Assembly (NCBI GenBank): GCA_964405665.1
Contig: CAYOOT010000003.1
Coordinates: 6,060 to 70,059, forward strand
Direction of reading: 5' to 3'
Origin: an uncultured Bdellovibrionales bacterium
Lineage (GTDB): Bacteria > Bdellovibrionota_C > UBA2361 > SZUA-149 > CAZDWZ01
DNA: 64,000 bases
Position 1 is the first letter of the stretch, and each line of letters begins with the position of its first letter. Under the pieces are notes generated by a model, which was given only the letters and a program-made list of their open reading frames with translations, was not told the origin of the DNA and did not search any database. Below, in pieces: positions 20,236 through 64,000 of the stretch. The position numbers and the translations under genes were made by a program.

Positions 20236-20415
20236 TAGTATTTTTTTTATAAATTCAATATGATCTCCGTCAGATCTGAGGGATTTATAGGTATAACTGA
20301 TTAAAAAAATAAGAAAATATTCTCTATTTCCATTTTTTTCTTAAATTTAGTATAGCCTACTCTCGCTAAATTACTGTTTTTGAGAGGAAATTTTAATTCA
20401 GAAAGAGTTTTTTAT

Positions 20416-46216: not shown

Positions 46217-46639
46217 ATGGCTAATTATAACAAGGATAAAATTAATATCTTATTTTTTGATGACAGTTGTGCCATGTGCAACGCCTGGGTAAGATTTGTG
46301 CTGAAAGTTGATAAGGATGGCAAAAAGTTTATTTTTTCACCCTTACATTCTCACTTTTTTAATAAAGCAATTCCTGAAGAAATAAGAAAAACTCTTCCCG
46401 ATAGTATAATTGTTCTTAGTTCCCAACTAGATCTTTTTTATAAAACTGAAGCAGTATGTTTTATCTTAAAAGAGCTTTCCGGATTTTGGCTTATTTTAGG
46501 TTTGATTATTAATTTATTCCCTTTAAAATTTTCAAATTTTATTTATGACTTAGTGGCAAAAAATAGAAAAAGATTTTTTAAAGCGGATCGTTGTGAGGTT
46601 TTAGAACCGGAAGTGAGTAAGAGAATAGTTTATGATTAG
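46217..46639 (+). CDS. DCC1-like thiol-disulfide oxidoreductase (DUF393)
   Basis: FDDSCAMCN.WV.F, F.F.PL.S, DSI, YDLVAKNR..FF. Confidence 0.88.
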   Translation: MANYNKDKINILFFDDSCAMCNAWVRFVLKVDKDGKKFIFSPLHSHFFNKAIPEEIRKTLPDSIIVLSSQLDLFYKTEAVCFILKELSGFWLILGLIINLFPLKFSNFIYDLVAKNRKRFFKADRCEVLEPEVSKRIVYD

Positions 46640-48909: not shown

Positions 48910-50526
48910 ATGATTAGTAATAAAGTCAAAGAAAAACTAAACACTTTCCTTTCCAGTCTCGAGCCACTATTGAGTCTCAGTCCTTTTTATACTTTAGATT
49001 ACTCCTGGCCCAGCTTCGCTTTTTTTGACAGCTTAACACGACCACTTCGCGGCAAAAAGAATTTAGATCAATTCTCTACTGATGTAATTTCAGCAACTGC
49101 CGCTTACTTGGCAATAATAGCCCATGATTGCTGGCAATTATATGAGTCTGAAGTAATTGTTGATCTACAAGAAGAAGGAGTGATTATTGGTGCCCGAAAA
49201 GGAAAGTTTATTCCTGAAAGTGAAGAAGTAGTTTTGTATATTGAAAGAGATTTAAAAAAGATTCTTGCTGAATTTCCTTATCCTTTTCCTGTTTTTTCTG
49301 ATTTCAAGAGAGAGATTGCACCATACATGAATATCTTAAGTCCTTTTGCGATTGGCGTTGTCACTGGTTTAAGTCCCTATATCGAAGGACCATGGTCAAA
49401 ATTAAAACCTGTGGAATTTAAAGATAACATTGAACTAACCGTAAAACATTTGGCAGAAGGTTGTGCCAATTATTATGCAAAAATTTTCCCCAATGAGCCC
49501 TTAGGACAGGTTGCCGAATTATATTTAAATTCACTAATTTTTCCGCCAATTTTATATTCCGAAGATGCTCCTGGAAGAAGAGCAGTTAGTGGAATTTTAG
49601 AATTTGCCAAAGAATATAAGGTCACTAAAGAAAATCTTCTGGCACTCTCACTTAATTTAAGCAGGTTTCCCGATGAAGTATTATCCCTTGCCGGCATTGC
49701 CATCTCTTCGGCTTTAACGGAAAAAGAAAATCCACATCTTGTTGCCGCAGCAGATATTAAAGGCCTTTTCCTGGGAACTCTACGTATCGCTATGTATGAT
49801 GTAGTTGAGCATTTCAAATTAGCAGAAGATTGGTTAAAACTTGAAGATTACAGCGATCAAAACAAAAAACAAATCGATAAAGAAATTAATTTAGGCTATT
49901 TCCCTTGGTTAAAATTAAGTAATGAAAAAGTATACACTGCCGCTAACGATGAAGAAGTTAAAAAATTAATTAAAGCGCTTGCTGTTTTTGATTTAAAAAA
50001 AGCTATTACTATTACTGATGATATTATTGCAATTGATCCCAGCGATATTGAAATTAGAGTTCAAAGAGCATATTGTGATATTATAAAAAGAGACATTCAG
50101 TCGGCCAGCAGTAATATTAAAAAACTGCTTAGCGAACCGGAAGCAGATTCGGTAGCTTCAGTTTTTAATTTATATGGAATGATTCTGCTGATCACCCAAG
50201 AATTTGAAAAAGCAATAAATTTATTCAAACAAGCGCAAAATTTAGCTGCGGGAGATCCTCGTCTTTCCAATGAAATTTCCAATAATCTGGGTTGGACTCA
50301 GATGTGTAATATGCAACATCAAGAGGCTCTTGATACTTTAGAACTAGCACTGCAAAGAAATCCCAAAAGCTTAGTTACGATGTTAAACAAAATGGCTTGT
50401 TTGATTGAGCTGAATAAGTTTAACGTTGCTGCGCGCTACATTAAGGAACTTGTGGACTTAGCTCCTTTTGAAAATAGGGCAATTTCAGCGGCGCTGGAAA
50501 TTTTAATTTTTCGCCAGAGTACATAG
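48910..50526 (+). CDS. Protein with an unknown N-terminal domain and C-terminal TPR repeats
   Basis: TPR-like units (NLYGMILL...FEKAI..F.QA, NNLGW......EAL..LELAL..NP). Confidence 0.72.
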   Translation: MISNKVKEKLNTFLSSLEPLLSLSPFYTLDYSWPSFAFFDSLTRPLRGKKNLDQFSTDVISATAAYLAIIAHDCWQLYESEVIVDLQEEGVIIGARKGKFIPESEEVVLYIERDLKKILAEFPYPFPVFSDFKREIAPYMNILSPFAIGVVTGLSPYIEGPWSKLKPVEFKDNIELTVKHLAEGCANYYAKIFPNEPLGQVAELYLNSLIFPPILYSEDAPGRRAVSGILEFAKEYKVTKENLLALSLNLSRFPDEVLSLAGIAISSALTEKENPHLVAAADIKGLFLGTLRIAMYDVVEHFKLAEDWLKLEDYSDQNKKQIDKEINLGYFPWLKLSNEKVYTAANDEEVKKLIKALAVFDLKKAITITDDIIAIDPSDIEIRVQRAYCDIIKRDIQSASSNIKKLLSEPEADSVASVFNLYGMILLITQEFEKAINLFKQAQNLAAGDPRLSNEISNNLGWTQMCNMQHQEALDTLELALQRNPKSLVTMLNKMACLIELNKFNVAARYIKELVDLAPFENRAISAALEILIFRQST

Positions 50527-50941: not shown

Positions 50942-52201
50942 ATGAAAATAACAAATAAATTTAAATACTTTTGTCTGCTTAATTTGATTTTGGGAATTTA
51001 TTTTCTGACGTCATCAATTTGTTTTGCTGAAGAAAAAAAGCAAGTAATCAAGAAACCCAAAACAGGATTAGAATTTTTTGAAAAAGGTTTATTCAATTAT
51101 AAAAATTCCAACCTAAATTCCAAAGTGGCATTCTTCGAAGGTGATTTTAAAAATAAAGAAGTAATCGATGTTACTAACGAGGACAAAAAAGATTCGGCAC
51201 TAGATACTTCTTCTAAAGATGAAAAGCCTGTTGTTAATTCTGAAGATCCTGAAATAAACAAAAATATCGTTGAAAATGTTAAAGAAAACTTAAGCAGCAA
51301 ATATGCAGTTGTTTATGATAGCGATAGTCCCGATAAAAAAGTCATCTCTCCCGATGAAGATCCTAAAATTGCAATCAATAAAGATGCTTCCGGACCAGCA
51401 ATTGGAATGGTTGCTGCTTGGCAAGATGGAGATCGGGAAACTGCTACAAAATATGCCTCGCAATGGGTTCGATACCAACAAAACTTTTTCTTTCTTGTAA
51501 GAGACATTACACAATTAGTGGGAGAAGCTTTAATCAAACAAGGCGAAATCGATCAAGATCAATGGGTGGGAGTTAATCAATACATCGATTATGAATTTGC
51601 CAAAACAAGAAACGAAACCGGAGCTTTATTTAAGCCTAAACATGAACAGGCAATGAAAAGAATTAAAGCGGATTCCAAAGGTGAAGCGGAAATTTACTTT
51701 TTCTTTACTCTCAATTGTTCTTGGTGTCGAAAAATGGCACCAGATGTTGAAAGACTCTGGAGAGCTGTACAATCTGATAACAAAGTTAAAATGGTTGCCC
51801 TAACAATGGGTGCTACACCAAAATCTTGGATTACTGAATATCGAAAATATACCGGCTTAACAATTCCAATTTTAGAAGGCGAAAATGTTGCCAAAAAAAT
51901 GGGAGTAAAATTTGTTCCGGCTGTGGTGATTGTTGCACCAACAGATAACAAGGCTTACTTAAAAACAGGCGAACAAGATTTCAACAGACTTTACGAATTT
52001 ACAAGAAGGGTGCAAGGACTACCTAACACTTTAAGCCCGGAAATAGAGCAAATAATTAACACACCAATTGGCGAAAAAGAACAGCTCGAATTAATCCAAG
52101 CAAAAAAAGAGATTCCTAATAAGAAGGTAGATAATGTTGTATCTACAGTAAGTGGCTTAAATAACAATAACGAAAGTCAATTGAGATTAAATAAGTTTTA
52201 A
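50942..52201 (+). CDS. TraF/TrbB-like exported thioredoxin-fold protein
   Basis: Signal peptide, charged linker, helical region, then IYFFFTLNCSWCRKMAPDVERL and A.KMGV..VPA (CxxC plus cis-Pro); heads the TraG-like cluster. Confidence 0.7.
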   Translation: MKITNKFKYFCLLNLILGIYFLTSSICFAEEKKQVIKKPKTGLEFFEKGLFNYKNSNLNSKVAFFEGDFKNKEVIDVTNEDKKDSALDTSSKDEKPVVNSEDPEINKNIVENVKENLSSKYAVVYDSDSPDKKVISPDEDPKIAINKDASGPAIGMVAAWQDGDRETATKYASQWVRYQQNFFFLVRDITQLVGEALIKQGEIDQDQWVGVNQYIDYEFAKTRNETGALFKPKHEQAMKRIKADSKGEAEIYFFFTLNCSWCRKMAPDVERLWRAVQSDNKVKMVALTMGATPKSWITEYRKYTGLTIPILEGENVAKKMGVKFVPAVVIVAPTDNKAYLKTGEQDFNRLYEFTRRVQGLPNTLSPEIEQIINTPIGEKEQLELIQAKKEIPNKKVDNVVSTVSGLNNNNESQLRLNKF

Positions 52202-52220
52202 GTTTGGTTATGAGGTAAAT

Positions 52221-54614
52221 ATGAAAGACTCAACTAATAGATTTAATTTTTTAATAAGTATATTTTTAATAACAAGTTTTTTTGTTATTAATACAGCCCT
52301 TGCCGATTATGTCTTGGTCGGAACTAATATCGTAGATTCGCAAAATAATGTGGTTGGTACTTTGAGTTCAGTTGTTAACCCCAATACGGGTACAACAGAA
52401 AGTGTTGCTGTCGATAGAAATGGTAATCCTTTAGCTAATCAAAAGATAATTTCATCCGAAACCGGGGCAATTTATAATGTAACTTCCGATGGAAAATTAA
52501 TTCAAGAAGGAGAGGATGAGAATAAAGACGAAAATGGCAATCCAATTCTTCCGTTCCAATTAGGAGCTGGAGGTACTGGGGGAAGCGCAAGTAGTGGAAC
52601 TGGGACTGGAACCGGGAGCAGTGGAACCGGAACTGGGACTAGTGGAAGTGGAACGGGTAGTTCGGCAGCTAATAGTTCAGGTGCAACTCCACCTGAACCT
52701 AATTTGGCATCTGATGTAACTTCAGTTAGTGAAACTGTTTCTCCTGGCTCACCAATATTCGATATTGCGGGTGAAATGGAAGTTACTGGAAGTAATGCTA
52801 GTTCTGCTACATCTAGATCGAGCGCTAGAACCTTAGGCGATAAAGTAAAAAGAGTGGGTGATACATCAACAAGAGAAAATAGCATGTTGGATTCTTTTGA
52901 TGGTTGGTCAACACTCTATCGTGGCACAAGAAACACTTCTCTTATGGTAGATCCTTACAAATTAAGCGAGCAATATCCTGAATTGTTTTACTCTGAAAGA
53001 GAAGATTCAAATAGGCCATCATTAGGCAAGGAATATACCTTACCAAAAAATAATACTGACAATATGGATTCAGGAAATGCTGATGCAACAGATATCGGTG
53101 TTGATGATGAAATTCTCAAAACATCAATGTCTATTTATCAACCAATAAGAAGAATGCAAAAAGATTTTTTAGAAGACCAAGCAGCCAGAAATGCTTATTT
53201 AGATAACGCTCTTACTGTAAGAGGAATTGCCATTATGACAATGGGCTTTTTAGATAAAACCGTTGGAGCAGGTTTAACATCAATTCAGCAACAAGCTGAC
53301 CAGGAAACAGTTCAAAACTTATTGAAGCAAATATCTTGGACAACATCTAAAATGGCCAATCCCGATCGAGCGCAAATCTATCGTGATACTGACGAAAAAT
53401 TAGAAGCTTGTTTGGAAGTAGCTTTTCAATCTCAAGCTCCAACAGCTAGCATTCAAGGACTTTCTAGAAAAATCGTATCATTTGATTGTGATGAAAAAAA
53501 ATGTGGCACAGCGCCAGTTGCCACTAAACCTTATCGAACAACAACTTCCGGAGAAACAGCTTATAAGCAACAAGGAAATGGCACTTATGCCTATTGTGTA
53601 TGCTGTGCAGAAACAAAAGATGAATTAAATAAAATTAACGAAAATAATCCCGATACTGGTGTCCGATATAGCCTGGCATCGAGACTTTTTTACGGAACAA
53701 AAAAACCTACTGCTAGCACCCTGAAAATGACAAGAATGCTAAATTGGTTTAGAAAAACTTATGGCGATGTTATTGTGCAAAATAAAACTGCAGGTGGCCC
53801 TGATAAAATATTTACTTACGCTTATGTACCTCCTGAATATAGCGTCAGAAGACTTGCTGCCGCATTTAATGATGGCTGTAAAGAACCTAACTCTGCTGCA
53901 GAAGTTGTCTTTAATGACACTCCGGGCACAAACTGCCCAATGATACTTCGTGATTTCAAAATTAAATATGGAATTTGTCCCGCATTGGTAAATGTTCTTC
54001 ATAATTGGAGGGCTATTAATAACCGAGCAACCCGAACTACTGAACATGTCAGAATGCTACTGGAAGCCTCTATGGGATTGATGTTAACTGCCAATGATGT
54101 TGAAAATCTTTTAGGCTTTAATGGCGGTGAACCGGATGGCTTGCCAGCGGGAAAAGAACCAACTGATGGCATGAGACGTTGGATTAGAAATTTTTGTAAT
54201 GCATCATCATTTACCGCAGTAACAAGATTTCATACAAAGCAATCTCAAATTATTAACGATCATTTGATTTTAAATCAACAACTGACTTCTATAGAAAAGG
54301 GGAAGATTTTGGAATTAATGTCAAGGGTTAGCCAGCATATTGCTCTAGCAGAGAAAGATTCTTCATCTAGTTATCCTGTTGAAGCTTTATTAGAAGGATT
54401 GCTAGTAAAAACTGGACGAGAAAATATTGGTAAACAAGCAGCAATCTCCGGAGCATCCGGCGCAATGAAAGCAAGAGTTGGTGAAATTGGCAGTATTCTT
54501 ACTTGGGGAGTGGGGGTTGGAGATTACTTTGCTGGTGCAAGCGGTGGTAGCGGTACAGTAGTCGGACGAGAAGCAGATCCAATTACAAGAACGCTTGATG
54601 AAATTAAACCATAG
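52221..54614 (+). CDS. Large exported Cys-rich protein, possibly a very divergent TraH-like pilus assembly protein
   Basis: Signal peptide, Gly/Ser/Thr linker, about ten Cys residues and helical/coiled segments. It occupies the traH slot between TraF-like and TraG-like genes; the family call rests mainly on synteny. Confidence 0.45.
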   Translation: MKDSTNRFNFLISIFLITSFFVINTALADYVLVGTNIVDSQNNVVGTLSSVVNPNTGTTESVAVDRNGNPLANQKIISSETGAIYNVTSDGKLIQEGEDENKDENGNPILPFQLGAGGTGGSASSGTGTGTGSSGTGTGTSGSGTGSSAANSSGATPPEPNLASDVTSVSETVSPGSPIFDIAGEMEVTGSNASSATSRSSARTLGDKVKRVGDTSTRENSMLDSFDGWSTLYRGTRNTSLMVDPYKLSEQYPELFYSEREDSNRPSLGKEYTLPKNNTDNMDSGNADATDIGVDDEILKTSMSIYQPIRRMQKDFLEDQAARNAYLDNALTVRGIAIMTMGFLDKTVGAGLTSIQQQADQETVQNLLKQISWTTSKMANPDRAQIYRDTDEKLEACLEVAFQSQAPTASIQGLSRKIVSFDCDEKKCGTAPVATKPYRTTTSGETAYKQQGNGTYAYCVCCAETKDELNKINENNPDTGVRYSLASRLFYGTKKPTASTLKMTRMLNWFRKTYGDVIVQNKTAGGPDKIFTYAYVPPEYSVRRLAAAFNDGCKEPNSAAEVVFNDTPGTNCPMILRDFKIKYGICPALVNVLHNWRAINNRATRTTEHVRMLLEASMGLMLTANDVENLLGFNGGEPDGLPAGKEPTDGMRRWIRNFCNASSFTAVTRFHTKQSQIINDHLILNQQLTSIEKGKILELMSRVSQHIALAEKDSSSSYPVEALLEGLLVKTGRENIGKQAAISGASGAMKARVGEIGSILTWGVGVGDYFAGASGGSGTVVGREADPITRTLDEIKP

Positions 54615-54623
54615 TAATTTATT

Positions 54624-57600
54624 ATGCCCGATTCAACCACATTATCAGCTGCGACATTTGTCTGTGCGGTGCTGGAACAGGCCGGGTACATGGCGCAAGC
54701 GCAAATGCTGCAGGATTTCAAAGCTTTTTTTAGAGAAGCAGGGGCATTTATTTACTTGGTCTCTATTGCTTCAGGCATAATTTCATTTGTAATCTTCGGA
54801 AGTTTTAGGGCAGCAAGATATTTGATACTCGGTCCTGCTTTTTTTTGGTTTTTAATTGGGCCGACCTCAGAATTTGACGGAGTGCTCTGGAAACTTGGTG
54901 ACGCACCAGCAAGAGCAATTGATCCGAGGCAGCGTGGAGACGCAGTTTCCAAGGCAAGTGTTAATAAAGTACTTAATGAAATTGGTTATGGCAGTAGTAC
55001 CACAGGAACTCCTCCTGCTGGAGGCGGTGGAACATCCACAGTTGAAAATATCAAAGTGGCCTATTTTTTTTCTTTCTTTGTCCGAGTGGTCAATAGTTTA
55101 GTTAGGGAACTTTCTCAAGAAATAATTGGGGATGAATCCAAGCATTTGAATTATATCAGTAAAGGGAGAGCGCTTGATTATCTAATTAATCATAATCCTA
55201 CTGACCCCTATTTAATTGAAACATTTGAAAATAACTTAATGGTTAAATGTAGCGGTTACTTTGGAGCGGCGATGGCTCTTTCCGCTTACGATATTTCTTC
55301 AGAATCGTTTATTATCGCCAGTTCAACTGCTGAAGCCGCTCAATTAAAAAGACAAAAATATTTAGAACTTTTCCGGGCTTATCAAGGACCGGGAGCAGGA
55401 CAAGAAAAAATAACTTTAAATAATAAACTGACCAGAACTTTAAAAATGCTTTATTATTTAAAAAAAGATGCTGCAGACGGAGGTGTTACCCAAGCAGAGA
55501 TTGATACGATCAATGCTTCTTTTGAAGGAGATCCTGACAAATCAAGCAAAGTTAACCAAGCCTTAGATGCAAAAATGCCCGGAAAGACAATTAGTTGTCA
55601 AGAAGCCTGGCAATTAATCGCTAAATTTCTGGCAGAAGATTATGCGCCTGCTAGAACAAAATATATAATTAACATTGCCAGTGGTGCGGGAAGAGATGCA
55701 GGTGAAGCTTGTCTTGATTTAGAAGAGAAACTTACCGGAGGCAGATCTAGTGATAAAGCCGGTTGTGAAACAAGATTAAATAGAATTGTTTCATTATTTA
55801 TCCTGAAAAATGGAGTGACCAGGGGGCTTCCCTTTGCCAGAGCCGCTCAATACGCAGCTAATCAAGAAGTTGAATTCGGTAAATACAAACAACCGGTTTA
55901 CATGCAGGTTGCAAGTACTGCCGGGCTGGCTCTAGCCAATACTGTTCCTGGAGGAGGAGCACTTGTCGGCTTTCAGCAATCTTTAAGTCCTTATGGAAAA
56001 GGAATTTATAATGCTGCTTCCAACGCCTTTGGAATAGCGGATAATGATAATCAAATGAGTAAATTTATTGCTTCCTCAATCAGCCAAGATGTTGATAAAA
56101 AAAAATGGACTTTGTCAGCCAGATTAGTAAACGTCGGGGGTACTACTGATGCAGCATTTGTTGAACTTCCCCAATACCAAATAAGAAACTTAAGACAAAC
56201 ACTGTTTTCTTGGGCACTAAATGTTCCTTACTGGCAGGGTGTTTTACTTTATTTAATTTCCATTGTTTATCCCTTTGCCGCTTTATTGGTTTTAATGCCC
56301 TCCAAGGCTGCATCTTTTTTGACAGTGCCGATGGCTTGGCTGTGGGTGAAAAGTTGGGATCTAGGATTTGCCTGTGCCATGGTTTTTGAAAAAGTACTTT
56401 GGAATATTTTTCCGGCAACAAAAATTAATGAAAAATTTATTAATACTAACTTAGAAAGTAATTTACTTTACGAAGCACTGTCTGAAGTACAAAAATACGA
56501 TCATACCTGGAATCTGCATATGTATTACATGATGCTTTCTTTAGTAACTCTTTCAGTTCCAACAATCATGGGTTACCTGACTTTGAAATCTAAAAGAGCG
56601 ATTCTTGCCAGTTTTACAGACAAACTAATGAGTGATTCCAAACAATCAGGTGAAATGCTGGCTTCCGGTTACAAACTTAATCTTGCTTCGGAAAGATTAA
56701 AAGTAATGAGAGACGCCAAAGGTGCCGCAGCAATGATGACCGGCAAAAGAGAAGAAGGCGGAGTAATGGGAGGTGGTGGATTGGTGGCCAAAGCCTTTGG
56801 CGGAAACAGAAGTCAACAAGTCGGCTTTTTTAATAAAATGCAGCTTTTAAAAGATCTAACTGGAATAACTGGAATCAGCCCGGATAATGCGATTAATCTT
56901 GCTGCAGGTCAGGTTGATTCTCTTCGAATAGGTTTAGGACAACAAGTAAACTACGATAGACAACAAAATATGATCGATCACCCACAACTAGGACGTTGGG
57001 GTTTAATTCAAACCTTAAATGATGCTTATGCCACCCAATTTGACCAATCTGGCGGTTTCGAAATAACAGATACGGAAATGAATCAGGCTGATGTTTTTAT
57101 TTCAACCTTTCAGAATAAAGTTGATCGAACATTCGATTATGGAGTAGGAATAGCCAGTAATCTTATTCAAAAAGGCACAAATCTCCCCGGTTCAGCTGGG
57201 ACTAAAGCAATTTTAAAAACTTTTGCTAGTTTTGAAGCATTGAAAATTGCGGCCGCCAGTAAAAAGGCTAGTGCCAAAGGCGAAAAAACTGAAATTGATA
57301 TTGCTCTGGATCACATTAGAAAACAGCCTGGTTTTGAAAACTTAACCCAAGATGAACTGCTCCGCGAAATGTCTCTCGCCTTTGATGCTCCAATTGACTT
57401 AAATAAAATTAATGAAAGCATTACTGGCATTTTCGATTACAGGAAAACAGTCGACCCAGAAAGAAGAAAAGAGTTGGAAGCGATGTATAATACTCCATCA
57501 ATTGGAAGTCCGGCCGCAAGAAAAATTGATGAAAATATAAACTATAATATTTTAGAAGCTTTATTGCCCTTAGATAAACCTTGGGATGAGACAATTAGTT

Positions 57601-57683
57601 CTTCCATTATTCGAGAAAGCATTAGCATTAAAAAACCAGTTAAAGGTAGCACCAATATTTTTAAAGAATTTGAGGATAAATGA
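54624..57683 (+). CDS. TraG_N/VirB6-like polytopic membrane protein, paralog 1
   Basis: N-terminal TM pair, Cys-bearing loop (SCQEAW), TM cluster PYWQGVLLYL...YPF.ALL..P...WLWVKSWD.G, long Gly/Ala-rich tail. Confidence 0.7.
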   Translation: MPDSTTLSAATFVCAVLEQAGYMAQAQMLQDFKAFFREAGAFIYLVSIASGIISFVIFGSFRAARYLILGPAFFWFLIGPTSEFDGVLWKLGDAPARAIDPRQRGDAVSKASVNKVLNEIGYGSSTTGTPPAGGGGTSTVENIKVAYFFSFFVRVVNSLVRELSQEIIGDESKHLNYISKGRALDYLINHNPTDPYLIETFENNLMVKCSGYFGAAMALSAYDISSESFIIASSTAEAAQLKRQKYLELFRAYQGPGAGQEKITLNNKLTRTLKMLYYLKKDAADGGVTQAEIDTINASFEGDPDKSSKVNQALDAKMPGKTISCQEAWQLIAKFLAEDYAPARTKYIINIASGAGRDAGEACLDLEEKLTGGRSSDKAGCETRLNRIVSLFILKNGVTRGLPFARAAQYAANQEVEFGKYKQPVYMQVASTAGLALANTVPGGGALVGFQQSLSPYGKGIYNAASNAFGIADNDNQMSKFIASSISQDVDKKKWTLSARLVNVGGTTDAAFVELPQYQIRNLRQTLFSWALNVPYWQGVLLYLISIVYPFAALLVLMPSKAASFLTVPMAWLWVKSWDLGFACAMVFEKVLWNIFPATKINEKFINTNLESNLLYEALSEVQKYDHTWNLHMYYMMLSLVTLSVPTIMGYLTLKSKRAILASFTDKLMSDSKQSGEMLASGYKLNLASERLKVMRDAKGAAAMMTGKREEGGVMGGGGLVAKAFGGNRSQQVGFFNKMQLLKDLTGITGISPDNAINLAAGQVDSLRIGLGQQVNYDRQQNMIDHPQLGRWGLIQTLNDAYATQFDQSGGFEITDTEMNQADVFISTFQNKVDRTFDYGVGIASNLIQKGTNLPGSAGTKAILKTFASFEALKIAAASKKASAKGEKTEIDIALDHIRKQPGFENLTQDELLREMSLAFDAPIDLNKINESITGIFDYRKTVDPERRKELEAMYNTPSIGSPAARKIDENINYNILEALLPLDKPWDETISSSIIRESISIKKPVKGSTNIFKEFEDK

Positions 57684-60586
57684 AAATATATTTTAAATAT
57701 ATTTTAATATTAATTTTGATGCTGCTCCTTAGCGTTAGCATTGTGTACGCTCAGGATGCACCTTCAACTGATGCCACCACATCTGCCGGAGCCTCTACTG
57801 GCACATTAGTTGGTGCTGCCCTGGAAACTGCCGGTTATTTTGCTCAAGCAAAAATTCTTGCAGAACTAAAACAAGTCATTGATAAGTTAGGAGCACTTAT
57901 TTACTTACTCTGCATTATTGGCGGAATTGTCTCTGTTGCTCTTTTAGGAAATCCAGGAAATGCCTTATGGTTACTGCTTGGTCCGCCAATGTTTTTTTTC
58001 ATGATCAACATCAAAGTGAATGCCAACGGTGCTGAGTGGCGTTTAGGGGCATTTGAAGATCATCGAGATCTTCAGAAAACTCTTGCCGGGGTGGAAATAG
58101 ACGGCAGAACTGGTGAAAGCGTTTCCTGGTTTTTTCACCATTATAATGTTCTGATTTCAGACACCATGCAACAGCTGATCAGTTTTGTAACAAAAAAAGA
58201 TTTGCGACACCAAATGAAATTCATGGCTCGGCAACAAATTGTTGATGATATGTTTGCTGCAGAAATTGATTCTTCAGAAGTTCTGCAATTGGCACATTTG
58301 TCTCTTGCTCAATGCATGAATGAAATGGATGCAGCTCGAAGAATTGGATTAGGAATGAGAGACCCCCATTATAAAAGATCTGCCGGTTTTACGGAAGCTG
58401 TCACTTATTACTGTAATAATTATACTAAAAAAAATAAATATATCCCTCAAGACTCAGCCGCTTTTGATCTGATTAGACAAATAGAATTTAAAAAGGGAAA
58501 TAGCTCAGCTTTTGAACAAGGTTTTAATCCCAATCCTGCTACTTGTGAAACTATTTGGAATTGGTTGTATGAGAGTGTAAAAGATATTTCTAAAGATGAT
58601 TTTGAAAATTCCATTGCCATGAGAGTAAACTCGGAAGCAGATATTAGATTTTTAGAAGAGATAAAATTAGAAATAGCGGAGAAACTAACTCAGTCAGCTC
58701 CAGATCCGGAGCGGGATTTTCATGAACAAAGTGATCTTGCAGAGAATTTTACTTGTCCTGGCAGTAATGCCCCACAGACAATCAGCAGAAATGAACTTGT
58801 TCCTCTAATTTTTGCAGGTCACCTGATAAAAAAAGTCTACTCCAAAGATCCCCGCGGTCAAATGACACAGCAACTATATGACCGAGCTGGCGTTCAACTT
58901 GCCACTACAGGCAATGATAAATTTCTCTATAGCAATGCCCAATGGAATCAAGAAGTAGTAAGACGATTTAGAATAGAGGAGTCTGCAGAAGCTGCTAAAT
59001 ATGAAGGTTTTATCATCGCTATGATGCTGCCTTATGTTCAAGGTGCCGGACTTTATGTTCTGGCCGTTACATTTCCTTTCTTTGCTTTATTATTAATAAT
59101 CCCCGGAAAAGCAAATGGCTTCTTTATGTGGTGCGCTCTTTGGGCCTGGTTAAAAAGCTGGGATGTTGGTTGGGCTTTAGTCATGGTTGCTGATGAACTT
59201 TTATGGGTAATGATGCCCCATAGTGGTTTCTTCCGTTTAGCCAAAGGTTTTACTGGTGGAGCAAATGCCGGTGTATATAGCGATCCGGTGAATGTTTTAG
59301 AAGCAGCATTTGGTGGAGACTATGCTTATAACTTATCCACTTATTATATGCTTCTTGGAACAATGATTACTGCTGTGCCGATGCTTAGTGCTCAGGCAGT
59401 TCTTGGTTCAAAAAGGGCTGTCGCAGGAATTTTTGTCGATGGTCTAAAAACAATTGGTCAGGCTTTTGGAACTAAAGTCACCGATTGGATTGCTGTTGAA
59501 CAATTAGGTGAAATCGATAAGAGAAGAGAACTCTCTGCTGCCCGCACTGCTTCTAAACAAATGAATAAAGACTGGGAGAGCCTTAGTGCTGCTAGAAGAG
59601 GCAACCAAGCATCTTCAGGGACACTTCCCGGTGTGAATATGCAAAAAGCAGTTCAAAATTTTAGTGCATATGCCAAAAATACTCAAATGGCCAATAGCTC
59701 CGATCAATTAGCCAGCAACAAAGGTTTTGTAGATAGTCTTAGAAAAAAAGCGGGATCTGATCCAGATGTTGCAAAAATGTTTGCAGACGGGAAACTTACA
59801 GGAGAAGAACTGAGAGATCATTTCTTAAATGCCGCGCATGGAAATCTTCAAAATATTAATGATAGCATTGACTTTAAACAATTCAAGACTTCAATAATGA
59901 GTCCAGATTCTACGCATGCCGGAGCAAAATATCTTAGAGAAACTTTTGGTGCCGAATTAGGAAAAGTCGACAGCTTTGAGGGTCTGGCAAAAATATTTAG
60001 TTCTGCAAAAGGCAAACTTGAGGCAGAAGGACAGCGTCTTGATGATTTACTAAGTAAAAGTATTGAAGCCAATACTGCTTTTTTAACTGTAAAAGGAGGT
60101 CAAGATTTCGGACAGCCAACTAGAGAATTAGAAGCTCATCGTCGACAAATTGAAGTGATGAGGGAGCAGGCAGAAATCAGAAGAGGAATCGGGGAATTGG
60201 GAATTTTGGCTGGAATAGTTACTGCTCCAGCGAATTTAATTACTCTTGGTGCTCCGATCAATAATTCGCTAATGACTTTTGGAACATCGATGCAAGCAAG
60301 CAGTGTGTTGATGGAACGAAAGGTAAGTGAAATGTCGATCCAACATCTAGCGGCATCGGCTTCTTATGCTTATTACCAAGCCTCAAAAAGTGATGAATAT
60401 AATTTCTATGAAAACGTTAGAGCGGGAATAACCCATCGAGCAGAACACTGGGGCGTTCCATTTTCTCCATATCAAACAATGGTTAAGTTAGATTTTGCTT
60501 GGCAGTCCGCTCAATCAGAATCTGCAAAATATAGCGCACAGATTTTTTCAAAAATCGGTGTAGCCGCCAAAGAGGCTTTGCCATAA
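57680..60586 (+). CDS. TraG_N/VirB6-like polytopic membrane protein, paralog 2
   Basis: GAALETAGY.AQA.IL, LLGPP.FFF, WRLG, TCETIW, PYVQG..LYVL...FPF..LL...PG, W.WLKSWD.G; ATGA overlap with paralog 1. Confidence 0.7.
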   Translation: MKIYFKYILILILMLLLSVSIVYAQDAPSTDATTSAGASTGTLVGAALETAGYFAQAKILAELKQVIDKLGALIYLLCIIGGIVSVALLGNPGNALWLLLGPPMFFFMINIKVNANGAEWRLGAFEDHRDLQKTLAGVEIDGRTGESVSWFFHHYNVLISDTMQQLISFVTKKDLRHQMKFMARQQIVDDMFAAEIDSSEVLQLAHLSLAQCMNEMDAARRIGLGMRDPHYKRSAGFTEAVTYYCNNYTKKNKYIPQDSAAFDLIRQIEFKKGNSSAFEQGFNPNPATCETIWNWLYESVKDISKDDFENSIAMRVNSEADIRFLEEIKLEIAEKLTQSAPDPERDFHEQSDLAENFTCPGSNAPQTISRNELVPLIFAGHLIKKVYSKDPRGQMTQQLYDRAGVQLATTGNDKFLYSNAQWNQEVVRRFRIEESAEAAKYEGFIIAMMLPYVQGAGLYVLAVTFPFFALLLIIPGKANGFFMWCALWAWLKSWDVGWALVMVADELLWVMMPHSGFFRLAKGFTGGANAGVYSDPVNVLEAAFGGDYAYNLSTYYMLLGTMITAVPMLSAQAVLGSKRAVAGIFVDGLKTIGQAFGTKVTDWIAVEQLGEIDKRRELSAARTASKQMNKDWESLSAARRGNQASSGTLPGVNMQKAVQNFSAYAKNTQMANSSDQLASNKGFVDSLRKKAGSDPDVAKMFADGKLTGEELRDHFLNAAHGNLQNINDSIDFKQFKTSIMSPDSTHAGAKYLRETFGAELGKVDSFEGLAKIFSSAKGKLEAEGQRLDDLLSKSIEANTAFLTVKGGQDFGQPTRELEAHRRQIEVMREQAEIRRGIGELGILAGIVTAPANLITLGAPINNSLMTFGTSMQASSVLMERKVSEMSIQHLAASASYAYYQASKSDEYNFYENVRAGITHRAEHWGVPFSPYQTMVKLDFAWQSAQSESAKYSAQIFSKIGVAAKEALP

Positions 60587-60589
60587 GCG

Positions 60590-62752
60590 ATGAATAATTT
60601 TAATTTTAACATTTTTAATTCCTTAATTTTAACTGCCCAAGCAGCTGGTGTTGGTGCAGATTTTGGGGGAGATGGTGTAATCGGATCTGTCAGTCATTTA
60701 ATTTCTGCATTGATGCAAACAGTGGGACTTTATTTGCAGGCAGAAATATTAAAAAACTTTTCTCCTTATTTAATTAAATTAGCAGGTCTTTGCTATATCT
60801 GTTCTGTGATATCAGCAATAATTTCGACGGCAATTTTTGGAAGTTATCGTAAGGCAGTATATTTTTTATTGGGACCAACTTTCTTTTATTTCATTATTGA
60901 AACAAAAGCTCCTGTTTCCGGAACGCAATTTAGAATGGGCAAACAAATTCGCGGCTCGATTGAAGATCAAAAGGAAATGATTAAGAGATATGGTATGGGC
61001 AGAGATTTAAATGAAGATGCCCAGGTATCTTTTGCTTTTTTAGCTTTTGACAATGTCATTAGTTCGATAGTGCAGGATGTTACCGATCTGCTTGTCGATA
61101 CTGCAGCAAAAGAGGATATTCTGATTAGGGCAAGAGAAAGAGTATATTCCTGGGTGATGGCCGCTTATCCGGCTTCCCCTGGTTTTATTAAATTAGTCAG
61201 CCTCGGTTATACAGGATATTGCGCTGAACTAATGTCCAAAGTCGATCAGATTAGAAAACATAAATTGGATCCGACAAAGTCAAACTTAACGGACAGCAAT
61301 TTGGATGAAACGGGTAAAAAATTAAAACAAGAATATAATACTCTTAAAAAAGAAAAAAGAATTAATATAATAAATCAAAGTGAGGTTACCAGTTATTTAA
61401 ATTTTACCACACCTGAACAAAGCCTCTTAAGCTGCGAAGAAATTTGGAACCATGCTCGCCAAGCAGCAATTAATGTGGCAACAAATGAATTAGAAAAGAA
61501 AACATTTAATCTTTCCGGAGTAGAAGATCCCGATCAATCAACAGAGCTGATGATGACTGAAGTGAAAAATGCACTTTCAGGAGATGCTGCGCAATCCCGA
61601 CTACATTCCAGACCAGAAGAGATTCTTGCTGCCTATATCATCAGATCGACTTTAAAAAAGACGCCTCATAGTGCAATGGTCTCTGGTATCTATGATAAAA
61701 TACCATTTAATGCTGCAAGGCACGATGTCTTATTAAAAGATATTGCTAATGCACAAAGTTACGGTGCTTATTCCAGAATTCAATATTTTGCCGGAGCAAT
61801 TCCTTATATCCAAGGTTTACTATTGTTATTATTGACAGCGGCATTTCCGTTTTTTGCAGTATTATTAGTCATGCCTAATCGTTCAATGTCGTTTATGATT
61901 TGGGGTTCGCTCTGGGTCTGGGTAAAATCCTGGGATATTGGCTTTGCGATGATCCTTGTGATCAAAAAAATAATGTGGCAATTTATTTCTCACTCAATAA
62001 ATGCTTATAGCTCCGTTGTAGATTGGAATAGACCGGAAACGATTTTTGAATTAATAGCTAAAAATGATCCTCTGGCCTCCTTGAATACTTATTTACAAAT
62101 TACAGCACTACTAACTTGCAGTATTCCACTTTTAACTGCCCATTTTTGTCTTGGTGCAACTAATCTTTTTGGTGCTTTCAAAATGAGCATTGATGATTCT
62201 GCACAAAAATTTGGCAATAAACGTGCCGGTATTGAAATGCGGCTTGCAGCATCCAGAGCTGAACATAGCCAATGGCTGGCAATGGAAAAATATGGAAAAG
62301 CTTCTTATGATAGAACATTGGATGATATTAAAACAACTGATCCTGCAGAAAGATTAAAAAAAGGTTATGGAGCACCACTTACAACGAAAGACGGACAGCT
62401 GCTTAGTGCAAGAGGAGATGATTCTGGACATACAGCAGCACTCATTGCTTATCAAAAAGGAAAATTTGATTATCACTTATCCAAAGAAGGTACAAGAAAC
62501 GCTGCCTACTTGTCGGCACTAACTGGCCGGGAAACTCACAATGCTTATATGCGACAAGCTAGAGGGGGAACTGTTCCGCTCTCAGCAGAGTATGGTCATT
62601 TATCACAAACATTTTTAGGAAATAATGTGGGAGCCGGTGGAGTAAACTTCTTTGGTGGTCCCAATTCCACAGATTATGGTTATAACAATTTCTTCATGGA
62701 TATGAGTACATTTGGTGAATCTGTGTTTAGAGGAAGTCCAGATGGTGGTTAG
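60590..62752 (+). CDS. TraG_N/VirB6-like polytopic membrane protein, paralog 3
   Basis: ALMQTVGLY.QA.IL, FGSYR.A.YFLLGP, SCEEIW, PYIQGLLL...FPF..LL.MP, WVWVKSWD.G; shorter tail. Confidence 0.7.
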   Translation: MNNFNFNIFNSLILTAQAAGVGADFGGDGVIGSVSHLISALMQTVGLYLQAEILKNFSPYLIKLAGLCYICSVISAIISTAIFGSYRKAVYFLLGPTFFYFIIETKAPVSGTQFRMGKQIRGSIEDQKEMIKRYGMGRDLNEDAQVSFAFLAFDNVISSIVQDVTDLLVDTAAKEDILIRARERVYSWVMAAYPASPGFIKLVSLGYTGYCAELMSKVDQIRKHKLDPTKSNLTDSNLDETGKKLKQEYNTLKKEKRINIINQSEVTSYLNFTTPEQSLLSCEEIWNHARQAAINVATNELEKKTFNLSGVEDPDQSTELMMTEVKNALSGDAAQSRLHSRPEEILAAYIIRSTLKKTPHSAMVSGIYDKIPFNAARHDVLLKDIANAQSYGAYSRIQYFAGAIPYIQGLLLLLLTAAFPFFAVLLVMPNRSMSFMIWGSLWVWVKSWDIGFAMILVIKKIMWQFISHSINAYSSVVDWNRPETIFELIAKNDPLASLNTYLQITALLTCSIPLLTAHFCLGATNLFGAFKMSIDDSAQKFGNKRAGIEMRLAASRAEHSQWLAMEKYGKASYDRTLDDIKTTDPAERLKKGYGAPLTTKDGQLLSARGDDSGHTAALIAYQKGKFDYHLSKEGTRNAAYLSALTGRETHNAYMRQARGGTVPLSAEYGHLSQTFLGNNVGAGGVNFFGGPNSTDYGYNNFFMDMSTFGESVFRGSPDGG

Positions 62753-62879
62753 TTTTTTTTTAAACATAGTATGATTTCAATAGGTTATGCTTTTGAGAAA
62801 TATTGATTAATAAAAAAAGGAGCAATTCTAAGATCTTAACGGATAAGTAAGAGCTAAGATCTAAAAAGGATTAACAAAA

Positions 62880-64000
62880 GTGCTAAGCGAAATTTTAAAT
62901 AGTCTCGTTAGAATTGCTGGCTTAATTGGGGCTGGGTTGGAAACAACTGGTCTTCATGCTCAATCACATATTCTAAATGGTAGCGGTAGCGTAGGTAGCC
63001 TGATTGGTGCAGCACTTGAGACTGCCGGTTATCAAACTCAATCACAAATTCTAAATACTTTTGAGCTTACTTTATCTTCACACATCGGAGGCTTACTCTA
63101 TCTACTGGCAATTATTGCTGCCTTAATCACAATTTCTATTGGAGGAAGTTATCGTTACGGCTTATGGTTATTAGTCGGGCCTCCACTGTTTTTTTTCTTA
63201 ACCCAAGTTCGTGAACCAATTGCTGAAGCCAATTGGCAAATAGGAGATAACGTTCACGCAGAATCAAAACCAAGAATTATTCAAGGATCTGCAGAAATCG
63301 GTGATCCGGAAAGAAGAGTATCGGTTTTTTTTAAAGCCTGGAATAGATTGACCACTGATATTATCCAGGAACTAATTAGATTATTACACCTCACAGAAAA
63401 AGGAAGTGATTTAGATTTCTTAAATAAAACAGATCTCTATCTGGGAATATGGAATAACCTGACCATCGATCCTTCTTTAAAAGGTTTTGTAAATCTGGCA
63501 TTGGTTAACAAATGTGCTCCGTATTTTTATTTACAAAGAGAAGTAAATAGTCCTTTTGTGCCAGACAGCTTAAAACCAGGATTACGCCGGCGCTTGGAAG
63601 AACATAACGGTAAAAATGTTCAAGTAAATATGAATGACCAAAAAGATTGGTTTAAGGATTTTCTTGTTACTTATTTACCGGAAGAAAATATCAAAGATTT
63701 ATATACCTGTAATGAACTTTGGACCTTAGCAGTCAAGGCTTTTAGAAAAGAGGCAAAAAGAAATTTTGAATTAATGTTAAAATCCAATCTTTCACCGGGA
63801 TTAAGACCAGAGCAGCGCCTAGAAAAGTTCATGTGGAAATGCAGTCAAATAAAAATTAACGCCGGTGCAATAAATCTCATTACAGATTTAATAAACGGCA
63901 CAGATCAAATCAATGAACAGTGTTTAAGCGTCCTAATCAATGAAATCGCCGCCCGAGCTTTATCCAACGAATTTGCCAGTACTAATAAAAATCTTATTGG
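62880..64000 (+). CDS. TraG_N/VirB6-like membrane protein, paralog 4 (3' partial; not in the ORF track)
   Basis: GTG start after AAGGA. Hand translation gives MLSEILNSLVRIAGLIGAGLETTG...LIGAALETAGYQTQSQIL...GGSYRYGLWLLVGPPLFFF...WQIG...VSVFF...KC...TCNELW, and the frame appears to run to the window end. Confidence 0.75.
   Translation, partial: MLSEILNSLVRIAGLIGAGLETTGLHAQSHILNGSGSVGSLIGAALETAGYQTQSQILNTFELTLSSHIGGLLYLLAIIAALITISIGGSYRYGLWLLVGPPLFFFLTQVREPIAEANWQIGDNVHAESKPRIIQGSAEIGDPERRVSVFFKAWNRLTTDIIQELIRLLHLTEKGSDLDFLNKTDLYLGIWNNLTIDPSLKGFVNLALVNKCAPYFYLQREVNSPFVPDSLKPGLRRRLEEHNGKNVQVNMNDQKDWFKDFLVTYLPEENIKDLYTCNELWTLAVKAFRKEAKRNFELMLKSNLSPGLRPEQRLEKFMWKCSQIKINAGAINLITDLINGTDQINEQCLSVLINEIAARALSNEFASTNKNLI

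Follow-up and report, generated by a model that had tools for sequence, protein, structure and literature searches.

Why would a bacterium keep, side by side in one operon, five diverged copies of a gene that conjugation systems of the F type hold once, with traF and traH as its neighbours? The question is raised by a stretch of 64,000 nucleotides (nt), here called the window, from the genome of an uncultured Bdellovibrionales bacterium (G000; contig C3, positions 6060-70059, or G000:C3:6060-70059; assembly completeness 92.85%). Between position 50942 and the end of the window lie six open reading frames (ORFs), all on the plus strand, arranged head-to-tail and tightly packed, as an earlier note made from the sequence alone had described. 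That note counted at least four TraG paralogs. The homologous tandem array stands, and the number four turns out to be the limit of the window, since a fifth gene begins 6 nt past the fourth. Very probably, the array represents the traF-X-traG part of a type IV secretion system (T4SS) that is F-like but divergent; this system is inherited vertically throughout its lineage and has its other parts scattered over the genome, and its TraG experienced a burst from one copy to five, all of which were then kept. The paralogs are numbered G1-G5 by array position, and three-digit labels denote the genomes of relatives. The genes of the operon, in order, are as follows (window coordinates, or contig coordinates where marked C3; aa, amino acids).

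50942-52201, plus strand: TraF-like periplasmic thioredoxin with CxxC, 419 aa; Thioredoxin_2 match over cut-off

52221-54614, plus strand: exported Cys-rich protein of an unnamed family, 797 aa; alignment of ten orthologues

54624-57683, plus strand: TraG_N/VirB6-like paralog G1, 1019 aa; TraG_N E 2.5e-3; overlaps G2 by 4 nt

57680-60586, plus strand: TraG_N/VirB6-like paralog G2, 968 aa; TraG_N E 1.1e-5

60590-62752, plus strand: TraG_N/VirB6-like paralog G3, 720 aa; TraG_N E 6.3e-12

62880-64000, plus strand: TraG_N/VirB6-like paralog G4, cut by the window end; full gene of 751 aa at C3:68939-71194; TraG_N E 3.8e-4

C3:71201-73969, past the window end: TraG_N/VirB6-like paralog G5, 922 aa; TraG_N E 6.6e-5

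The successive gaps between these genes are 19, 9, -4, 3, 127, and 6 nt.

TraG_N (Pfam PF07916, gathering score 36.1 bits) is the sole family returned for the five large proteins when they are compared with all of Pfam (hmmscan, E up to 0.01), and none of the five matches TrbL/VirB6 (PF04610) in that search. G3 exceeds the gathering score, with 45.6 bits (47 in the genome-wide search); G1, G2, G4, and G5 fall below it, with 17.3, 25.1, 19.8, and 22.5 bits, but are homologous to G3 (BLASTP, E 1e-18 to 1e-49), and all paralog pairs find each other at E 1e-13 to 1e-61. Their identity to G1 is 22-25%, and 39 alignment columns are invariant in all five; these include ALETAGY..Q..IL, LLGP..F, V...F, C...W, PYxQG, PF, and WxWxKSWDxG, and thus every shared motif that the earlier note had listed. 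Fifteen columns are invariant across 48 proteins of 10 genomes, W442, W444, W448, and D449 among them. Beyond the core lie C-terminal tails of variable length, with identities of only 17-21% among orthologues. An AlphaFold2 model of G3, built on 48 homologues (predicted local distance difference test score, pLDDT, 73.4; predicted template modeling score 0.70), consists of a long N-terminal helix, a large loop domain with two invariant cysteines, and a C-terminal membrane-helix bundle that coincides with the hydrophobic segments. Compared with 48,161 representative PDB chains, this model aligns best with DotA from the DotA-IcmX protochannel of Legionella (Z 8.2 over 236 residues) and next best with TrwI/VirB6 from the stalk of R388 (Z 6.5 over 211 of 261 residues), ahead of a third match with Z 5.9 over 65 residues; the values are modest for a helical protein, and the matches are therefore counted as supporting evidence, not as proof. 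A TraG profile searched against PDB sequences found nothing below E 0.3. Taken together, the profile matches and the shared motifs support the membership of the large proteins in the TraG_N family.

A profile of the five paralogs has matches in 37 of 41 relatives and in all 26 relatives of high quality, and TraG-like genes are present in 87 of 96 genomes at the widest scope, all labelled as the same class. Exactly five matches are found in 14 of the 30 genomes of the same order, more than five in 10, and fewer in six, and these six are all 90% complete or less. In G003, G004, G006, G012, and G014, the surplus is read as a single gene that matched twice along its length or was divided by contig ends. 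In G007 (contamination 6%), 10-11 TraG-like matches are spread over several contigs, and this genome may hold two strains or a second array. Gene order, from the TraF-like gene through the homologue of the 797-aa protein to G1-G5, is identical in nine relatives of the same order, so that the distribution is one of fixed synteny rather than a patchy one. All named public records of the lineage (n=33) are uncultured metagenome-assembled genomes labelled Bdellovibrionota, Bdellovibrionales, Oligoflexia, or similar.

These data bear directly on the idea that a plasmid or an integrated conjugative element left the array behind or carries it as cargo. Its gene families do come from conjugation systems, and elements that combine a relaxase with a canonical type IV coupling protein (T4CP) are real in some relatives: such a T4CP (E 1e-86 to 1e-101) lies within a few kilobases of a relaxase in G025:C15, G019:C44, G008:C26, and G013:C10. 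Relaxases are sporadic among the relatives (PF03432 in 9 of 41, PF08751 in 4 of 41), and several of them adjoin this second, canonical T4CP; those several mark true mobile elements that are distinct from the core T4SS. No relaxase is found in G000 by PF03432 and PF08751, the two relaxase families searched, and a tblastn search of G3 against 72,556 plasmids gives no match. The neighbors of the array are housekeeping genes (PolA, an extracytoplasmic function sigma factor, and MoxR), the G+C content of the locus is close to that of the genome (0.383 versus 0.364), no tRNA lies within 30 kb of the array (the nearest is at window position 20415), and no integrase occurs among the flanking ORFs scanned. 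With the array in every high-quality relative, in the same order, and with paralog trees that mirror each other, an origin as element remnant is already contradicted and must be regarded as very improbable. The locus is chromosomal, vertically inherited in fixed order, and not an island. The earlier note had argued as much from composition and from the lack of a visible relaxase, integrase, or attachment site in the window, and the composition and the lack of an integrase among the flanking ORFs scanned are borne out.

The phylogeny of the paralogs indicates when the five copies arose. The tree contains 49 proteins from ten genomes, the fifth gene of G011 having been left out as it is split over two stretches. 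Each array position forms one clade, with Shimodaira-Hasegawa-like approximate likelihood ratio support of 99-100 (99 for positions 1 and 2, 100 for positions 4 and 5). Array-position labels require the minimum possible number of changes on the tree, four, and none of 200 shuffles is as low. Within the position clades a similar species branching recurs: in four of them G009 splits off first and G005 next. In sister orders of the same class, a single TraG-like gene of 1008-1172 aa is present, apart from G035, which has two. In G032, G034, and one locus of G035, this gene is preceded by a TraF-like gene and a middle gene that looks unrelated to that of the array, and the contig of G037 begins at the middle gene. 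Adding five sister-order TraGs as an outgroup leaves each paralog clade unbroken, with support of 99-100; the stem between the single-copy TraGs and the paralog clades measures 1.38 changes per site, and the branches between clades measure 0.09-0.11. The long stem and short inter-clade branches, together with the same three-part layout around a single TraG in the sister orders, point to a short burst from one copy to five at the base of this order. Since the burst, the five paralogs have diverged at an equal rate, with a core identity of about 34% in every clade, and no paralog has been lost in any of the ten genomes examined.

The two genes that precede the array encode a thioredoxin-fold protein and a Cys-rich protein, both of which have one N-terminal hydrophobic segment (residues 10-28). 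The 419-aa protein scores above the Thioredoxin_2 cut-off (29.9 versus 27 bits) and carries CxxC, in agreement with the earlier note; of the proposal that it is TraF, the thioredoxin family holds, while the TraF match itself is sub-threshold (PF13728, 21.8 versus 23 bits; TIGR02740 TraF-like, E 2.6e-4). The motif C[ST][WY]CR is present in six of seven orthologues from the five-paralog order (it is absent in G009) and in none of three sister-order proteins. The redox-active CxxC seems to have arisen no earlier than the TraG expansion and the acquisition of the Cys-rich 797-aa protein. The latter is variable and rich in Gly and Ser toward the N terminus but conserved in a C-terminal domain (about residues 275-775) that contains all ten of its cysteines. 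These are invariant or nearly so among ten aligned orthologues, which fits its earlier description as a large, exported, Cys-rich protein.

What the 797-aa protein resembles was pursued by several routes. It has no match to a Pfam or NCBIfam family, and its relatives number 14 in 90% clusters and 117 in 50% clusters. In F-type operons, traH stands between traF and traG, which is the place of the 797-aa gene here. The protein thus sits at the traH gene position but is not demonstrably TraH. Its AlphaFold2 model (pLDDT 67.3) is mostly helical, with three long C-terminal helices. Foldseek finds no match to this model in the PDB at E 0.001 or better, a wide fold search of the C-terminal domain with VIA-align returns generic helical bundles only (Z 5.4 or less), and the ESM Atlas contains no usable match for that domain. 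With respect to IcmX, the partner of DotA, the sole match to PDB entry 9ngy is at rank 26 with Z 4.7 and is not specific to IcmX. Prediction of a complex between G3 (residues 34-590) and the C-terminal domain gives no verdict (score 0.00). A profile labelled A5, compared with PDB sequences, matched Gly/Ser-linker constructs only and was set aside as a low-complexity artefact.

Other components of the F-like T4SS are encoded elsewhere in G000, with a second locus on contig C20.

G000:C20:16000-35255: second T4SS locus, with TraE-like, TraK_C, TrbI/VirB10, weakly DotD-like, and F-type TraC genes

The gene order is TraE-like, TraK_C, TrbI/VirB10, a possible lipoprotein with a weak DotD match, and TraC, followed by three small ORFs, an SH3-domain protein, an M23 peptidase, and then, 3.3 kb beyond TraC, a pilin-like gene (C20:30250-30684). 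TraC (912 aa, C20:24248-26986) matches TraC_F_IV (PF11130) with 33.3-34.9 bits against a cut-off of 28.1; its best NCBIfam match is TIGR02746, F-type TraC (E 6.4e-55, below the equivalog cut-off), and it also matches VirB4_CagE (1.1e-31). TrbI/VirB10 is likewise over its cut-off (47.5 versus 35 bits), and the TraK_C (28.3 versus 28.5 bits) and TraE (E 3e-3) matches are weak. TraC is found in 40 of 41 relatives, mostly in single copy, with 69-87% identity within the order and 52-64% in sister orders, a level of conservation that is housekeeping-like as judged from the sequences. Five further pilin-like genes lie in tandem on contig C4, bringing the total in G000 to six, and the pilin profile has matches in all 41 relatives, with 1-18 per genome. 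A single pilin gene also lies about 4 kb from traC in six sister-order genomes; this proximity, shared with G000, ties the pilin family to the machine. The earlier picture of a self-contained apparatus is not borne out, since the TraE, TraK, TraB, and TraC genes and the pilins lie on other contigs than the array.

The separation of the two loci could also be taken to mean that the traF-X-traG operon, with its fivefold TraG, no longer belongs to the T4SS and instead builds another envelope complex, and the failure to detect TraH, TraU, TraN, and TraW would fit such a change of job. The other T4SS genes are themselves scattered, however, and the parts co-occur through the lineage, as the counts for TraC, pilin, and TraG given above show. 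In addition, VirB6-class proteins are core parts of every solved T4SS covered in the available text of PMC12857230, and the TraG_N search of G000 offers the machine on C20 no second VirB6/TraG candidate, since its four matches fall within the array. A role outside secretion is for these reasons improbable.

Two characterised precedents come closest to the array. As in F-type systems, a thioredoxin-fold TraF-like gene lies upstream and TraC is of the F type. Unlike F-type systems, which carry one traG, this lineage has five fixed paralogs at a chromosomal, vertically inherited locus, a middle gene that is not detectably TraH, and no detected TraU, TraN, TraW, or TraV; a further difference from the F-plasmid system is that the TraF-like protein carries CxxC, and none of the plasmids searched matches G3. 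F-plasmid TraG is described in the available part of PMC10939261 as the VirB6-like inner-membrane subunit of the F-type T4SS. The array proteins resemble it in belonging to the same Pfam family (G3 over the cut-off), in being large and polytopic, and in having a long, variable C-terminal part.

The second precedent, which the earlier note had drawn upon, is the rvh system of Rickettsiales, and the analogy is apt. In Ehrlichia, four VirB6 paralogs are reportedly expressed and interacting, according to the title of a paper. Rickettsia has five RvhB6 proteins (RvhB6a-e) of 674-1154 aa with divergent flanking regions, as given in the consulted part of PMC2653234, and Wolbachia wMel has four VirB6 paralogs, according to the accessible text of a preprint (10.1101/2025.08.29.673095). 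Both rvh and the array consist of tandem, deeply diverged, enlarged VirB6-class paralogs with divergent flanks, both belong to a vertically inherited T4SS with scattered genes and duplicated pilin genes, and the copy number in Rickettsia is five, as it is here. The two differ in protein family and in host: in rvh, which is a P-type system found in intracellular Alphaproteobacteria, the proteins are of the TrbL/VirB6 family (PF04610), whereas the array proteins belong to TraG_N in an F-like system of a Bdellovibrionota-like lineage. A further difference is that no duplication of VirB4, VirB8, or VirB9 is seen in G000, in which TraC is single-copy. Because the array paralogs lack a TrbL/VirB6 match, the two expansions are taken to be independent. 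The available text of PMC11656739 mentions neither T4SS nor TraG, and a search of the literature on Bdellovibrionota T4SSs and on VirB6 multiplication and pentamers, from which most subscription journals were absent, yielded no paper that describes this system or proposes a VirB6 heteropentamer.

The number five acquires a possible meaning from solved secretion machines. In R388, the VirB6 homologue forms a pentamer on the machine axis and is proposed to serve as a dock, first for a VirB5 pentamer and subsequently for pilins (PMC12857230, available text). VirB6 and DotA are both pentameric, and DotA and IcmX form a pentameric protochannel in the Dot/Icm system (PMC12857230 and PMC10939261, accessible parts). 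The two best structural matches of G3 are thus subunits of five-membered rings. DotA (PDB 9ngy) is a large VirB6-class protein, and it forms a pentamer with a periplasmic partner; unlike the array, it is a single protein of a type IVB system whose partner is IcmX, for which the 797-aa protein shows no specific match. TrwI/VirB6 (PDB 7o3v) forms a pentameric platform; the protein is small (261 residues modelled) and assembles as a homopentamer, and it has no sequence-level match to G3. Since the platform is a five-membered ring in solved machines, each of the five copies may fill one ring place. By this analogy, it is tentatively proposed that the five paralogs constitute a heteropentameric VirB6-type platform with one paralog per ring position.

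In the proposed mechanism, the five paralogs would be co-translated from one tightly packed operon and would co-assemble into a single heteropentameric inner-membrane platform or protochannel, replacing a homopentamer of the TrwI (R388) or DotA (Dot/Icm) type. Each paralog would hold one ring position and present its own fast-evolving C-terminal tail. The CxxC thioredoxin would make or shuffle disulfides of periplasmic partners, namely the 797-aa protein, the conserved Cys pair in the periplasmic loop of TraG, and the pilins, and the 797-aa protein would serve as a periplasmic platform partner at the TraH gene position; both of these roles are suggested by adjacency and Cys conservation. The machine would move proteins, or build a contact filament, toward other cells, and its own DNA would not be mobilized. 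Fixed number and order, equal constraint, translational coupling, and birth in a single burst are the trace that would be expected of a switch from a homopentamer to an obligate heteropentamer.

The same data can be arranged differently, with each paralog forming its own homopentamer. The operon would then encode as many as five variants of the machine, or five platforms that nucleate pili, to be used according to target, pilin, or condition. The different lengths and low identity of the C-terminal tails would suit such alternative platforms, as would the multiplication of the pilins and the lack of residues fixed by clade. Against alternative platforms stand the retention of every paralog in ten genomes in a fixed order, the equal constraint on all five clades, and the single-copy state of TraC, TraB, and TraK, and overlapping or abutting genes in one operon argue against separate regulation. 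This arrangement is accordingly considered unlikely. A one-to-one pairing of the five tandem pilins with the five TraGs was also entertained and dropped, because pilin counts range from 1 to 18 and five-gene pilin arrays were seen in some families of the order only.

When the heteropentamer and the assignment to a secretion system are weighed together, several observations count against them. The heteropentamer rests on number, co-retention, and analogy, and the structural side of that analogy is qualified in two ways: the Z values of 8.2 and 6.5 fall under the alignment tool's caution line for helical proteins, and Foldseek finds no match of the G3 model in the PDB at E 0.001 or better. No column is conserved within each of the five clades and yet differs between them, so there is no simple position-specific signature. 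The spread of pilin copy number from 1 to 18 among relatives makes a fixed pairing of one pilin with each TraG unlikely. TraH, TraU, TraN, TraW, and TraV (PF06122, PF06834, PF06986, PF12477, and PF09676) are all below cut-off in G000, where divergence is high and the genome is 92.85% complete; the best PF06122 hit, at E 0.05, is located elsewhere in the genome. TraH, the identity that the earlier note had entertained for the Cys-rich protein, also gives no signal in the family itself, matching none of ten orthologues (PF06122, E up to 1) and none of ten distant homologues (E up to 0.1), and between the middle gene of the sister orders and the 797-aa family there is no detectable homology (hhalign probability 0.1). 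Finally, neither Pfam nor tblastn queries with T4CPs from three relatives reveal a T4CP in the G000 assembly. On balance, the account as a whole, including the heteropentamer, is still favored as the best explanation of the locus, with moderate confidence.

The last of these absences is to be read against the lineage. The earlier note had reported no coupling protein, and this is correct for the present assembly, but a T4CP (PF02534) is over the cut-off in 37 of 41 relatives, typically as one gene of 720-990 aa with E of about 1e-36 to 1e-43. It lies 19 kb from traC in G011 and 11 kb from traC in G019, and three of these T4CPs are 54-64% identical to one another. With G000 being 92.85% complete, the absence may be an assembly gap; the neighborhood of the T4CP genes in relatives is too weakly conserved to tell loss from such a gap. 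The machine of this lineage probably has a coupling protein and lacks a relaxase of its own, a combination that fits protein translocation better than conjugation. The role in prey, host, or kin contact that the earlier note had put forward is still an inference.

Several genes around the operon deserve mention. Upstream, a tetratricopeptide repeat (TPR) protein is possibly associated with the operon, as gene position suggests.

48910-50526, plus strand: TPR protein, 538 aa, possibly operon-associated; TPR families in Pfam

Its gene is 415 nt from the TraF-like gene, and in G002, G011, and G009 a homologue likewise precedes the TraF-like gene. A DCC1-like thiol-disulfide oxidoreductase (PF04134, E 1.9e-17; window 46217-46639, plus strand) is encoded 4 kb upstream of the operon. 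The minus strand immediately past G5 (G000:C3:73949-77578) encodes a 523-aa protein without a known family, as well as two polysaccharide deacetylases (PF01522, E 3e-11 and 3.5e-23). In G002 the array is followed by homologues of the 523-aa protein and of both deacetylases, in G001 by two of the three within the stretch examined, and in G011 by both deacetylases. From C3:77672 to the end of the contig extends an ORF of at least 1789 aa that runs off the contig; its sole match is a sub-threshold one to DUF6782, a putative metallopeptidase (24.2 bits, cut-off 27), and it is possible that it encodes a giant secreted enzyme or substrate. The G000 genome measures 2.8 Mb, compared with 5.1 and 5.3 Mb for two genomes of the same family. 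A search of sequencing runs finds the stretch in four DNA runs of one freshwater study, possibly the source sample, with no RNA run listed.

The multiplication of VirB6 in some secretion machines still lacks an explanation, and the duplications are called 'a mystery' in the accessible text of the Wolbachia preprint (10.1101/2025.08.29.673095). The lineage described here provides a second, independent case of VirB6-class multiplication, in an F-type rather than a P-type system, and its evolutionary record is unusually clean, with one gene in the sister orders, five in fixed order in each fairly complete genome searched from this one, and equal constraint on all. The pentameric state of VirB6 and DotA, set beside five paralogs, yields the testable idea of one paralog per ring position. 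If this idea is true, the RvhB6 proteins of Rickettsia would be an independent, convergent case, and the multiplication of VirB6 in Rickettsiales would have the same structural explanation. The fullest form of the proposal, which may prove right but is held with some doubt, is that of a symmetry-broken T4SS, in which an obligate heteropentamer with fixed ring positions would have taken the place of the homopentameric platform in one burst and become part of a vertically inherited core organelle of an uncultured Bdellovibrionota-like lineage, probably for cell-to-cell attack or attachment. A conjugation-type machine, as the conservation of TraC across the lineage illustrates (52-87% identity), can become a phylum-wide, housekeeping-like organelle, and in a lineage with no cultured member among its 33 records, this machine is a prime candidate for the means by which the cells deal with other cells.

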